UHGV virus genome: UHGV-0164982
DNA: 64,000 nt
From: a virus
Strand: one strand, 5' to 3'
Part shown: one piece after another, positions 10,921-63,908 of the stretch
How positions within the stretch are numbered: the stretch's first letter is position 1
Layout: every line of letters starts with the position of its first letter
The notes under the pieces: generated by a model
The model's input: the letters and a program-made list of their open reading frames with translations, nothing else
Told to the model about the DNA's origin: nothing
Databases searched by the model: none
Position numbers and translations under genes: made by a program

Positions 10921-10937
10921 AAATTAATTAGAGCAAT
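10921..10937. promoter_or_regulatory. C1 operator-like site upstream of ssb
   Basis: AAATTAATTAGAGCAAT matches the complement of the recalled P1 C1 operator consensus ATTGCTCTAATAAATTT at 16 of 17 positions. Confidence 0.6.
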
Positions 10938-11070
10938 AATGTATATCTTTGAAACGTAGCTAACAAGTGATTTGCATTATCCTGTGTCTTCTAAAGGGAT
11001 CGAGTCAGTCGGTATTGGCTGTGGATGGGTGTTTGTCTTGGGGCGTAAAAAATTCGCTTATGAGGTCTTT

Positions 11071-11628
11071 ATGAAGGGAAAAACAGCCGCAGGAGGCGGT
11101 GCAATTTGCGCTATCGCGGTGATGATTACCATCGTGATGGGTAATGGCAATGTGCGAACCAACCAGGCGGGGCTTGAGCTGATTGGTAACGCTGAAGGTT
11201 GCCGACGTGATCCATACATGTGCCCGGCAGGGGTATGGACTGACGGGATCGGTAATACACACGGGGTAACGCCGGGTGTGCGAAAAACAGACCAGCAAAT
11301 CGCCGCTGATTGGGAAAAGAATATCCTGATCGCTGAACGCTGTATTAATCAGCACTTCCGGGGCAAAGACATGCCCGATAATGCCTTCAGTGCAATGACA
11401 AGCGCGGCATTCAATATGGGATGCAATAGCTTACGGACCTACTACAGCAAAGCGCGAGGCATGCGAGTAGAAACGTCTATCCACAAGTGGGCGCAGAAAG
11501 AGGAATGGGTGAATATGTGTAACCATCTCCCTGATTTCGTGAACAGTAACGGCGTGCCCCTGCGAGGTTTAAAGATTCGCCGTGAAAAAGAACGCCAGCT
11601 TTGCCTGACGGGGCTGATCAATGAATAA
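11071..11628 (+). CDS. lyz: SAR endolysin (GH24 lysozyme)
   Basis: 185 aa from ATG 11071; N-terminal signal-anchor-release hydrophobic segment followed by E-D-T catalytic triad spacing typical of phage lysozymes. Confidence 0.85.
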   Translation: MKGKTAAGGGAICAIAVMITIVMGNGNVRTNQAGLELIGNAEGCRRDPYMCPAGVWTDGIGNTHGVTPGVRKTDQQIAADWEKNILIAERCINQHFRGKDMPDNAFSAMTSAAFNMGCNSLRTYYSKARGMRVETSIHKWAQKEEWVNMCNHLPDFVNSNGVPLRGLKIRREKERQLCLTGLINE

Positions 11629-11875
11629 ACTCCGGCAGCTCCGCCGACTTTCGACAATGAAGTTATCGCTGGCGGCGATAGTTTTCGACTCGATTTTCAT
11701 GGCGGTATATGTGCTCAATGAGACGTGGCCACTGGAACCGCTATTATATGCCGGGCTTCGGCTGTGCCTGACATTTTTGAGCATGGCTGCGAGATTGATG
11801 CAGCAGAAAGAAACCGCTTCAGATTGTCCACGCCGCGCGGTGCGCAAATATATGGCACGCAGGCGAAGGCGATAA
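11621..11875 (+). CDS. small membrane protein with Arg-rich tail (lysis accessory candidate)
   Basis: 84 aa ORF overlapping lyz stop; central hydrophobic helix and C-terminal RRRRR. Confidence 0.45.
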   Translation: MNKLRQLRRLSTMKLSLAAIVFDSIFMAVYVLNETWPLEPLLYAGLRLCLTFLSMAARLMQQKETASDCPRRAVRKYMARRRRR

Positions 11876-11888
11876 TAGTTAACGATAA

Positions 11889-11914
11889 CCCCGGCAGCCG
11901 CCGGGGTTATTTTT
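11889..11914 (+). terminator. intrinsic terminator
   Basis: CCCCGGC-AGCC-GCCGGGG hairpin followed by TTATTTTT. Confidence 0.7.
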
Positions 11915-12007
11915 GGTGGTTATCCGGTGCGCCGTAAAATCCCGTCCTTCAGGGAGGGGATATAAGGCGTGGTTTTCCACCTAACTGTTTTTGTTTAAAA
12001 TAGTGGG

Positions 12008-60578: not shown

Positions 60579-61514
60579 TTAGAATGGTACATTGTCATCC
60601 ATCTCAAAGTCTGGGGGTGCAACAGATATTCGATGAATTTCATTTCTTTCCATATCCATCATTTGATCCTCCTGCTCCCCATCATCGTACCACGATGAAG
60701 TGTCTACCTCTAAAGCTTCAGATATGACTTCAAATGTTTCAGGAGAGTCTAAGTGAGAAGCCATGTGCAACGTGAACGGATAACTTTCTTCTAGGCTAAC
60801 CCCATCATTCCTAGAACCATATTCTTGAGTAACATAGACAGTACCGGAAGCATATATATTGATGTACTCATCATCAATCGACGTGATTCCAAATTCTTCG
60901 ACTTCAGTGTAATCTACATACGCATGATTCGCGATAGTCACTAGGTTTTCAGGCATAGAGCTTACCGCCGTGTCAATAACTGCATTTCTAATTTTATCTT
61001 CGAGAGTACGAATTAATTCATCTCTACAAATATGTATACCATTTAGTATTTCTGTAGCGATCTGCAGTATTTGTTTGGCCTTCAGGAAGAACTCTTGAGG
61101 TGATGGATGCATATATTTCTCTGTTATATGCGTATATTTATTTAAGAAGAAATAAAGCTTAAGCATCTCATCTATTCTTTCATTCGACTCCTCCAGGAAC
61201 TCTTCCCCCAAGTACGCATCTGAAATTTTAGCTTGAGAACAGTATTTTAAACGCTGTCTTCTAGATATTTCGTAATGTTCATGTTCTCTCTTATACCACG
61301 ATGCTTGTAATAATTTATCATTCGGAGATTTTTTCTCGATAATATGCTTTATTAGCTCGCGAATTGAAAATGCAAAGTTATGAAAACGTAATGGGTTGCC
61401 ATGTGATGCATAATTTCGCAAACAAGCTGTGAATAATTCTTTTTCAAAATCAGTTTCTAGGTGACTCATAAAATCATTCACAAAATCAAGAGATTGTAGT
61501 TTTTTAAGCTTCAT
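60579..61514 (-). CDS. AT-rich orphan protein
   Basis: 311 aa, acidic C-terminus, very low GC; lies between GT remnant and IS element. Confidence 0.55.
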   Translation of the reverse strand: MKLKKLQSLDFVNDFMSHLETDFEKELFTACLRNYASHGNPLRFHNFAFSIRELIKHIIEKKSPNDKLLQASWYKREHEHYEISRRQRLKYCSQAKISDAYLGEEFLEESNERIDEMLKLYFFLNKYTHITEKYMHPSPQEFFLKAKQILQIATEILNGIHICRDELIRTLEDKIRNAVIDTAVSSMPENLVTIANHAYVDYTEVEEFGITSIDDEYINIYASGTVYVTQEYGSRNDGVSLEESYPFTLHMASHLDSPETFEVISEALEVDTSSWYDDGEQEDQMMDMERNEIHRISVAPPDFEMDDNVPF

Positions 61515-62179
61515 CGTGTAACCTTATATTCCTGTCTCAGATTTAATATCGGATTCAACCGAATCCTCTTCTTCTAAATTTTAAAGTCGTGTAACATTAC
61601 AAAATATTCAAGGTTAAATTGAACATATATTATTGTTATTTAGATGTAAGTATATCTGAGCACTCGTTACAATACCAGAATATTACCATCATTCATCATA
61701 AAGTAACTAGCGAAGGTGTGGCGGAAACGTAAGTAAGTTGTTCTCCAGGTAATTCAATACCTGTTCTTTCTAAATAGCTGCGCGGAATAGTGATCTACTT
61801 TCGTCCGCCCTTGCAGGGCGAGACATTAGGTCGGCGTCCCCTACCTGACCGTGCTGCATCAGGCTTGAGTGTGTTGCCCATATGCAACATACCACACATC
61901 AGTAAACGGCAAGTGTAGTAGTATTAGGCGCAGAAATTTAGTACAGCCCAGAATGCGCCGTAACAATCAATAAACCACTACACCCGCGCCCTGGCTGCAA
62001 TTCGGTAACAGGGGATCCCCCCTAGCTTCCAGCGTGATTAGCGCCTTCAGCATGACGGAATATACCCGTAAATACGAGGAACTCTACCCAAAGGCTGTTA
62101 AGAACCGGCTGTTACGCTGAATGAAAAAGGACGTAACAGGTAAGGACGCTGACCAGAAGATGGCCCCTTCTCGTTCATC

Positions 62180-62420
62180 TGGTTAATCAAACCAGCGCCC
62201 TTGCCTGTTATGCCTCCTCGTTCCCTAATACACAGACGGGGACAACCCCGTGGTGTCAGGCTTCTTAGGCCGCAACCATCATCAGATCATCGTTTGCATT
62301 TACTTTAATGGTCAGTTTGTGACTGCTCCCCGCCCTGTCGGGCGAGGCTTCCCACTTCTCAGGCCACAACCGTCTGTGCGACGGATTTACGCTGGCCTCC
62401 ATGGGCGGAGACGACGAGTC
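62180..62420 (-). ncRNA. putative TnpB omega RNA scaffold (boundaries approximate)
   Basis: GC-rich hairpin-dense sequence overlapping and extending beyond the tnpB 3' end. Confidence 0.3.
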
Positions 62421-63890
62421 CCGCCGCCTGTAGTTCCAGTATTCCTTTTTGCCGGATGTTGAGTGCCGCATTGATATCGCGGTCGTGCTCTGCTCCACAT
62501 TCAGGGCATCGCCAGATGCGTTTATGAAGCGGCATTTCCGGCATTTTGTAACCACAACAATAGCAGGCTTTCGAACTGGCAAACCACTGGTCGAGTTTTA
62601 CTAGGTGAACGCCTTTTTCCGCTGCCTTGTACTCCAGCTTTGTGATGAAGCTATGCCAGCCTGCATCACCTATCGCTCTTGCCAGATTGTGGTTTTTCAT
62701 CATGTTGGCTGTTTTCAGCATCTCGACAATTACCGCTTGGTTTTCGTCAACAATTGCACGAGAGAGCTTGTGTTGAAAATCAGCACGGGCATTAGCCACC
62801 CGTTCGTGTAACGCTGCCAGACGGATTGTGGCCTTTTTACGATTCGCGCTTCCCTTTTGCTTGCGGGATAAGGCTTTTTGTTTGCGTCGCAGATTACGGC
62901 TGGCATTGATGAGATGGCGGGGATTTGCAATTTTTACCCCATCAGACTTGATGGCAAAGTGCGATAATCCCATATCTAGGCCAGTAACTGTTGATATCAA
63001 CGTGGGTTTTGCCGGAGCTTCCATGCCATCATCACAGAGAATTGAAGCATAGTATTTCCCCGTTGCTGAACAGGTGATAGTGATGCTTTTCAGCTTTCCA
63101 TGAAGTTCACGGTGAAGGCGTGCTTCTATTAGGGACAGTTTTGGGATTTTGATGGCATTATCCAGCACCTTAATCCCGACACAGTGATAGCTCGATTGTT
63201 TTCCGTGTTTACGTTTAAACGTCGGGAACCGCGCTTTCAGCTTCGGATTAAAAAAGTTGGAAAATGCCACATCAAGATTAATTACCGCCTGTTGCAACGC
63301 AATAGAATCATATTCTTTAAGCCATCCATACCTGCGGGATTTCTTTGCCACTGCAAGCAGCGGTTTCAGATCGTTACGCGGACTTAAATTTACTCCATGT
63401 CGCTGGTAAGCATGTTTTTTGATGTGAAGAGCTTTGTTGTACGCAAAGCGCACTGCACCGAACTGGGCATTGAGGTACTCTGCCTGTTCTGGTGTCGGGT
63501 AAATGCGTACTTTTGTTGCTCTTAACATAGTCACCGCTCATTGATACAGGCTTTTTATGCTAACACCGTAATGATTTTTTTAAAGCCCTGTTGGCTTTTC
63601 GCCTTATATACCCGCCCGCATTAGGCGAGGGTTTACGGCGTTTTTCGCTAAACCGCCGCAAAGTCGCTAACCATGACGAAACCCCTGAAAAAAACGCCCA
63701 CCCGAAGATGGGCAAACTGGATGGAAGCTCGTTACGCACTTCGGAGTTGCCACTTAGGCGCATGGTCAACCTGGCAACTCGGTGGTTTGTCTGGGAGGAC
63801 TAGGCCCAGCCATGCTTACCGCCGCGCCTGTCGCGGCTAACAGCTAAATCGCTCTAAAAATCACGATTCATTGATTCGATATTACACTAA
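62200..63890 (-). mobile_element. IS200/IS605-family element carrying only tnpB (boundaries approximate)
   Basis: TnpB ORF with structured ends; no TnpA ORF; hairpin plus T-run upstream of tnpB. Confidence 0.4.
62359..63534 (-). CDS. tnpB: TnpB / OrfB RNA-guided nuclease-like protein
   Basis: 391 aa; RuvC-like core and C-terminal CYCCG...CPECG zinc finger. Confidence 0.85.
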   Translation of the reverse strand: MTMLRATKVRIYPTPEQAEYLNAQFGAVRFAYNKALHIKKHAYQRHGVNLSPRNDLKPLLAVAKKSRRYGWLKEYDSIALQQAVINLDVAFSNFFNPKLKARFPTFKRKHGKQSSYHCVGIKVLDNAIKIPKLSLIEARLHRELHGKLKSITITCSATGKYYASILCDDGMEAPAKPTLISTVTGLDMGLSHFAIKSDGVKIANPRHLINASRNLRRKQKALSRKQKGSANRKKATIRLAALHERVANARADFQHKLSRAIVDENQAVIVEMLKTANMMKNHNLARAIGDAGWHSFITKLEYKAAEKGVHLVKLDQWFASSKACYCCGYKMPEMPLHKRIWRCPECGAEHDRDINAALNIRQKGILELQAAGLVVSAHGGQRKSVAQTVVA

Positions 63891-63891
63891 T

Positions 63892-63908
63892 AAATTTATT
63901 AGAGCAAT
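63892..63908. promoter_or_regulatory. C1 operator-like site, perfect match
   Basis: AAATTTATTAGAGCAAT is the exact complement of ATTGCTCTAATAAATTT. Confidence 0.7.

Follow-up and report, generated by a model that had tools for sequence, protein, structure and literature searches.

UHGV-0164982 is a virus genome, from which we analysed one stretch of 64,000 nucleotides, hereafter referred to as the window. Alignment by megablast identified the window as a P1-like phage-plasmid (Punavirus) in reverse orientation relative to P1 (AF234172), with a shared backbone ~98% identical to P1. Genes were mapped by tblastn of P1 proteins together with open reading frames (ORFs) in the novel blocks, and coding sequence makes up 91.7% of the window. 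Homology to P1 is lacking mainly at 8036–8742, 9528–10211, 11924–13259, 33659–35386 and 43400–47804 and over most of 58662–63647. Dispersed across this map are 17-bp motifs that an earlier reading of the DNA (the original prediction) had taken for an extended network of operators of the repressor C1. Scans, orthology and comparison with a divergent relative indicate that these motifs are very probably operators of a P1-type C1 repressor, spread over the P1-like element (Table 1).

C1 operators and their repressor

We scanned the window with the P1 C1 consensus from the literature, ATTGCTCTAATAAATTT, an asymmetric 17-bp sequence, allowing up to three mismatches. This yielded 15 matches, compared with 0.38 expected from dinucleotide shuffles (maximum of 2 in 100 shuffles). 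A position weight matrix (PWM) built from 18 operators annotated in P1 gave 16–17 sites of at least 15 bits, compared with 0.5 expected from whole-window dinucleotide shuffles. Thirteen of 17 sites are fully intergenic (binomial P ~1.6e-11) and two further sites straddle stop codons, Omat at that of ref and Obana at that of dmt. The remaining two are coding: the known operator Oc1c lies in coi, and one site falls within the first 70 nt of darB. Site density is 2.43 per kb in intergenic DNA versus 0.051 per kb in coding DNA, a 48-fold difference. The comparable density inside genes that would have counted against the original prediction was thus not seen.

Block alignment to AF234172 placed 16 sites on P1 protein_bind features that carry the label ‘phage repressor C1’, and in 12 of them the sequence is unchanged; one further site (16107) is annotated in P7 (AF503408). 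The window has in common with the P1 and P7 networks the asymmetric 17-bp consensus, a repressor that is 99% identical, Lxc and Coi, and the bivalent arrangement at c1 and ban, in which two sites are offset by 11 bp. It differs in a degraded Oppp, in single substitutions in Oc1e and OpmgT, and in an additional Oc4-like site, located between pacB and c1. At Oppp, the core C at position 5 is lost, and the PWM score of 11.8 compares with 19.6 in P1. A weak site on the opposite strand (52944–52960) overlaps Oppp at an 11-bp offset, mimicking the bivalent geometry of Oc1ab and Obanab. O26 heads the pmgL–pmgM(VRR-NUC)–ppp operon.

The original prediction, which had proposed at least 13 operator-like 17-mers in intergenic positions, agrees with this map in most respects. 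All 13 of its sites were recovered at or near their places, including the perfect site (Obana), the pair before a 420-aa gene (OpmgRa and OpmgRb) and the site at an antirepressor-like gene (35365). Its VRR-NUC/ppp site exists but is O26, the annotated Oppp being a separate, degraded site; its weak cra/cre site is probably the one at 30589, between cre and c8; and its intergenic placement holds for the 13 of 17 sites given above. Six sites were missing from it: Omat, Oc1c, Oc1b, Op(pro), Oppp and Obanb.

C1, Lxc and Coi are 99%, 100% and 95.7% identical to their P1 counterparts, so the regulatory protein machinery is intact. According to the annotation of the P1 record (AF234172), Lxc enhances C1 binding to all its operators. 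In P1, C1 binds 22 dispersed operators, for which an identical consensus is given (PMC8546580), and its inactivation induces ref, ssb, ban, dmt and kilA (PMC4713147). Given these reports and the orthology of the sites, the network itself is established knowledge: judged by its sequence, it is the classical P1 C1 regulon, met again and not ‘extended’ as had been proposed.

Table 1 Features of the window and its blocks of P1 homology. Fractions of 17 are matches to the operator consensus.
Feature	Position	Strand	Details
Ossb (Op21)	10921..10937	-	16/17, identical to P1; intergenic, 20 bp upstream of ssb, heads ssb operon
Op(pro)	16107..16123	-	ATTGCCCTAATGTATTT, 14/17; 54–70 nt inside darB, 130 bp upstream of prt, on prt strand
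Omat (Op2b)	29446..29462	-	13/17, identical to P1; overlaps ref stop codon, upstream of mat
Oref (Op2a)	30112..30128	-	14/17, identical to P1; 99 bp upstream of ref
c8 candidate operator	30589..30605	-	ATTGCTATAATTATTTG, 13/17; intergenic between cre and c8, 17 bp before c8 start
Oc1e (Op99e)	32150..32166	-	15/17, one difference from P1; cra/cre side of immC
Oc1d (Op99d)	32233..32249	+	16/17, identical to P1; at P1coi promoter
Oc1c (Op99c)	32525..32541	+	12/17, identical to P1; inside coi
Oc1ab (Op99a/b), bivalent	32697..32724	.	at Pc1 promoter
Oc1a	32697-32713	+	14/17, identical to P1
Oc1b	32708-32724	-	10/17, one difference from P1; recognisable by orthology only
Oc4/Op51-like operator	35365..35381	-	TTTGCTCTAATAAATTG, 15/17; starts 4 nt after pacB stop
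Olpa (Op94)	38671..38687	-	14/17, identical to P1; 71 bp upstream of lpa (late-promoter activator gene)
OpmgT (Op88)	48075..48091	-	16/17, one difference from P1
OpmgRb (Op86b)	50167-50183	+	identical to P1; upstream of pmgR and pmgS (420 aa)
OpmgRa (Op86a)	50216-50232	-	identical to P1; upstream of pmgR and pmgS (420 aa)
Oppp (Op83)	52933..52949	+	TATGTACTAATTAATTT, degraded to 12/17, two differences from P1
O26 (Op82)	53840..53856	+	15/17, identical to P1; between pmgL and gene 26
Obanab (Op72), bivalent	63881..63908	.	identical to P1
Obanb	63881-63897	+	15/17, identical to P1
Obana	63892-63908	-	17/17, identical to P1; overlaps dmt stop
c1, repressor gene	32808..33659	+	280/283 residues identical to P1 C1.100
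coi, C1 inactivator	32488..32697	+	95.7% identical to P1 Coi
lxc (bof), C1 corepressor	23291..23539	+	100% identical to P1 Lxc
P51a-like promoter (inferred)		-	-35 TTGTGT overlaps 35365 operator, extended -10 TGTTACATT; deduced from the alignment with P1 Oc4/P2c4
isrK-like leader RNA	35212..35290	-	Rfam RF01394, 59.5 bits (gathering score 50)
Terminator-like hairpin and T run	35217-35233	-	inside isrK-like leader, between C1-controlled promoter and c4
c4 antisense RNA	35080..35167	-	Rfam RF01695, full length, 75.4 bits (gathering score 45)
icd-like gene	35025-34804	-	73% identical to P1 Icd
ant-like antirepressor gene	34807-33692	-	56% identical to P1 Ant1; ORF6N and KilAC domains, phrog_63 Ant
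ORF, unknown	58695-59087	+	Oban block
ORF, unknown	59146-59847	+	Oban block
Argonaute-associated or pPIWI nuclease gene	60579-61514	-	Pfam pP_pnuc_1/2; PADLOC Aga_Nuclease 1e-62
tnpB, IS605-family	62359-63534	-	behind Oban
P1 block	1-8035		P1 32275-24241
P1 block	10212-11923		P1 21740-20030
P1 block	13260-24442		P1 20029-8847
P1 block	24439-32089		P1 7651-1, no IS5
P1 block	32090-33658		P1 94800-93232, immC, 95.9% identical
P1 block	35387-43399		P1 93204-85191
P1 block	47805-58661		P1 84579-73723
P1 block	63648-64000		P1 68922-68575

C1 binding has been demonstrated in P1 for many of these sites; for the element studied here we infer it from orthology. C1 would bind the 17-bp sequence and occlude sigma-70 promoters of early and lytic operons, and by homology to the P1 promoter annotation the operators are predicted to overlap or abut these promoters. 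The operons under such control would be ssb, prt/pro, mat, ref, c8, cra/cre, lpa, pmgT, pmgR/S, pmgL–ppp and the ban operon, as well as coi–c1, which would make the control autoregulatory. The overlapping site pairs Oc1ab and Obanab would form bivalent operators. Lxc would strengthen C1 binding, which Coi and the Ant antirepressor would relieve. A copied Oc4/Op51 operator–promoter head at 35365–35381 would drive a second immI-type cassette, and the site at 30589–30605 is a probable weak operator before c8. The proposal that the operators mark operons silenced in the lysogen fits a C1 regulon and is nonetheless too simple, as the Oc1 sites autoregulate c1, which is itself expressed in lysogens. 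Lysogens produce c4 RNA. In the P1 record, c4 has two annotated promoters, of which the second, P1c4 (former P51b), lies clear of Oc4.

We scanned the whole genome of Cronobacter phage JK004, a diverged relative with 76% identity in C1 and 50–85% identity in most of its proteins. Sites of 14.5–25.6 bits lie at the same gene junctions as in the window, with near-equal spacing before ssb (22 versus 20 bp), ref (98 versus 99 bp), lpa (71 versus 71 bp) and prt (130 versus 130 bp). Sites are also present at c8, ban and immC (three, including an equivalent of Oc1e), next to pap (OpmgT), as a pair at pmgR, and between pmgO and pmgM (Oppp). That the positions are kept despite this divergence points to selection rather than mere inheritance, and is our strongest argument for such selection.

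The comparative data support two operators that are not annotated in the P1 record. The site at 16107 is labelled ‘hypothetical monovalent C1-controlled operator Op(pro)’ in P7, and its sequence is present in P1, unannotated. JK004 reads ATTGCTCTAATAAATCT at this position with equal spacing, in a darB–prt region that is 73% identical, and three of its four differences shift towards the consensus. The c8 site is annotated in neither P1 nor P7. RCS47 and MH422554 carry a canonical core, ATTGCTCTAAT, at this site next to a diverged upstream flank. In JK004 a near-consensus ATTGCTCTAATAATTTA precedes c8 by 27 bp. Of 32 IMG/VR loci, 25 have the canonical C and 7 have an A. This is probably a genuine operator position, of which the window, P1 and P7 would have a weakened form, and in that form a TATAAT arises as well.

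A second immI-type cassette between c1 and pacB

The 1.7-kb insert at 33659–35386, between c1 and pacB, is a cassette on the minus strand comprising an operator, an isrK-like leader, c4, icd and ant. The operator region at 35365 aligns gap-free to the P1 Oc4 and P2c4 region. The leader contains c4 targets a1 (TTGAGAC) and b1 (GTCAAAGG), which are repeated after c4 as a2 and b2, where b2 spans the ribosome-binding site of icd. The c4 RNA has two loops, b' (CCTTTGAC) and a' (GTCTCAA), whose complementarity to both target pairs is exact. At its stop codon, icd overlaps the start of ant by 4 nt.

This order is the same as that of P1 immI (Oc4/Op51, P51a/b, c4, icd, ant1/ant2), with nearly the same spacing: 214 nt from operator to c4, compared with 203 nt in P1, and 55 nt from c4 to icd, compared with 51 nt. 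The placement of a1/b1 upstream and a2/b2 downstream of c4 and the 4-nt icd/ant overlap are common to both. By contrast, P1 immI lies between sim and kilA, so that the cassette does not occupy the canonical position; its c4 targets differ from those of P1 immI (TTGACAG and GTTAGTGA); its Ant has the middle replaced by an ORF6N domain; and its leader matches Rfam isrK and bears a terminator-like hairpin. The hairpin, at 35217–35233, suggests an attenuation or read-through step, which is not shown in the P1 immI annotation. A similar arrangement is known from the Salmonella prophage Gifsy-1, in which the IsrK leader (Rfam RF01394) is followed by an antirepressor gene. Sequence and gene order identify the 35365 site as an Oc4/Op51 paralogue that heads a complete second immI-type cassette, a displaced additional copy. 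The related plasmid NZ_CP067401 is 100% identical over the cassette and has a canonical icd–ant locus as well; unlike the window, it carries ban.

In the immI of phage D6, the leader, c4 and icd start are 93.6% identical to the cassette. D6 differs in its b target, GCAAAAGG, for which its c4 loop has changed to compensate, and has no P1-type operator at the position aligned to 35365. The operator is identical in RCS47 and 673R5. We compared c4 specificities in RCS47, 673R5 and D6 and at 31 places in IMG/VR contigs where the operator head occurs, and found at least four types that share this head, with a and b targets of TTGAGAC and GTCAAAGG, TTGAGAC and GCAAAAGG, TTGGAAC and GCAAAAGG, and TTGGCCT or TTGGTCT and GTCTAAGG. 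Pairing between the c4 loops and both sets of targets is complete in all four types (7/7 and 8/8 positions), indicating covariation.

As the IMG/VR loci of this set had been fetched by a pattern that contains the operator, we repeated the conservation check on loci fetched via the c8 site. Fifteen such loci span c1 to pacB; nine have a P1-like gap of 26–28 bp and six (~40%) have the cassette. The operator core is kept in 6/6 of these cassettes, two of which have changed flanks or a single substitution. The cassette is present in at least 301 PLSDB plasmids. An ‘ant gene between pacB and c1’ was noted earlier only as an insertion (Venturini et al., RCS47); we came across no account of it in that paper as an operator–c4–icd–ant module.

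Cargo genes behind backbone operators

Compared with P1, different genes follow OpmgT, Oban and Ossb. At OpmgT, the operator and promoter region are conserved, and P1 homology stops at 47804, ~90 nt into pmgT. What follows is a pmgT that is 47% identical to P1 and then eight genes typical of lambdoid/Stx phages (47896–43033), with families that include Ead/Ea22, DUF4752 and PHROGs of unknown function. This pap–pmgV variable block (43033–47896) ends in a 323-aa ORF (43033–44004, minus strand), the last 111 residues of which match P1 PmgU.

Behind Oban, the stretch 58662–63647 lacks the ban helicase gene, tciABC, plp/upl and the three tRNA genes of P1, and ARAGORN found zero tRNA genes in the window. 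In their place lie tnpB, two ORFs and an Argonaute-associated or pPIWI nuclease gene, which is an orphan with no Argonaute gene nearby. The block is 99.8–100% identical in 12 PLSDB plasmids, including NZ_KX518745 (pig farm) and NZ_MH781719 (Klebsiella), and the ban-less arrangement occurs in relatives from pig, chicken and human E. coli and from Klebsiella. In the Ossb operon, a 684-bp insertion in isaA creates a 281-aa ORF (9538–10383, minus strand) directly downstream of ssb, with a C-terminal Pfam Tad2-like (Thoeris anti-defence 2) domain (2.5e-22).

The matrix scan of the window revealed no operator brought in by the cargo blocks behind OpmgT, Oban and Ossb, so any C1 control of these genes would be through the backbone site. 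A search for further operators inside the non-P1 cargo blocks returned only chance-level matches (8032, 9512, 9860, 10103 and 58986). As part of the conserved backbone, the operators would bring under C1 control any cargo that recombines in behind them. A tentative extension, which we consider possible although the odds are somewhat against it, is that C1 operators act as fixed sockets for exchanged cargo, with OpmgT, Oban and Ossb as examples, that the cargo is expressed only at infection or induction, and that the second immI cassette is a diversifying anti-immunity weapon against other P1-like C1 immunity.

Elsewhere in the window, another IS200/IS605-family tnpB (12008–13216, plus strand), absent from P1, is inserted between lydD and pro (11924–13259). 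The mod gene (within 23670–28546) is intact, without the IS5 carried by the sequenced P1 strain. The res/mod-to-cre stretch (24439–32089) is 99.99% identical to P1, much above the ~98% of the other backbone, which suggests a recent exchange of this stretch.

Alternative readings and implications

The motifs might instead be AT-rich, promoter-like matches arising from chance or composition, with no repressor behind them. Intergenic DNA is the more AT-rich (42% versus 47% GC). Matches of 12–15 bits do occur near the chance rate (8032, 58986 and Oc1c, compared with ~2.4 expected), and the match at 36157, inside pacB, has a broken core and no JK004 counterpart. By contrast, shuffling intergenic DNA only gives 0.09 sites of at least 15 bits where 13 are observed, and the sites have annotated operators as orthologues and hold their positions in JK004 at 50–85% protein identity. 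The scans and JK004 refute chance for the 17 strong sites, and as an account of the network we give it practically no credence. It stands only for 36157, which we rejected, and for 8032 and 58986, which we treated as noise because the 12–15-bit matches are near their expected count and one of them is the known Oc1c.

A different account holds that the sites are a passive legacy of a recent P1-like ancestor and have fallen out of use, the 35365 site being merely a recombination scar borne by the cassette. With a backbone ~98% identical to P1, identity says little about selection; Oppp has decayed here, and downstream cargos have been replaced or disrupted, with tnpB inserted behind Oban and ban deleted. 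Disuse is nevertheless difficult to reconcile with intact c1, lxc and coi, with sites kept at the same junctions in JK004, with the drift of Op(pro) towards the consensus there, or with a cassette operator core retained in six of six independently sampled cassettes, two of which have changed flanks, and across four c4 types. We regard passive inheritance as improbable. At c8 the balance is closer: the site here might be primarily a promoter −10, the TATAAT arising from a C-to-A change, and not a working operator. The allele in the window, P1 and P7, ATTGCTATAAT, holds a perfect TATAAT, lacks the position-7 C of annotated P1 operators except Oc1b, and is unannotated in P1 and P7; set against this, the canonical core occupies the position in the IMG/VR majority (25/32), RCS47 and JK004, and no suitably spaced −35 is evident by eye. 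We consider a primarily promoter role less likely than not.

Several observations weigh against reading the sites as C1 operators. The PWM was trained on P1 orthologues of the sites it scores, so that its scores are not independent discovery; independent evidence comes from the consensus scan and from the comparison with JK004. On sequence alone, Oc1b (PWM 4.8) and Oppp (11.8) are indistinguishable from background. The c8 site has A at position 7, where 17 of the 18 matrix operators have C (Oc1b being the exception), and in the window it may bind C1 poorly. A generic sigma-70 scan around three operators missed these weak promoters, both the P1-annotated ones at OpmgT and Oban and the inferred P51a-like promoter at 35365, so that the overlap of operators and promoters rests on homology to the P1 annotation.

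As a catalogue, the C1 operator network repeats what has been published on the P1 regulon and leaves it unchanged. To this, the comparison adds, modestly, an operator-headed second immI with diversified c4, support for Op(pro) and the c8 site, the decay of Oppp and the turnover of cargo. The network also provides a map of accessory genes that are probably lytic-phase-only in wild P1-like plasmids. What had been an ‘ant gene between pacB and c1’ is predicted to be a complete immunity module, under the control of C1 and c4 and existing in several specificities, which bears on superinfection and incompatibility among P1-like plasmids. If the socket model is true, cargo behind C1 operators would be turned on at infection or induction only. 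Separately, the second immI could give P1-like phage-plasmids a means to overcome one another's C1 immunity.

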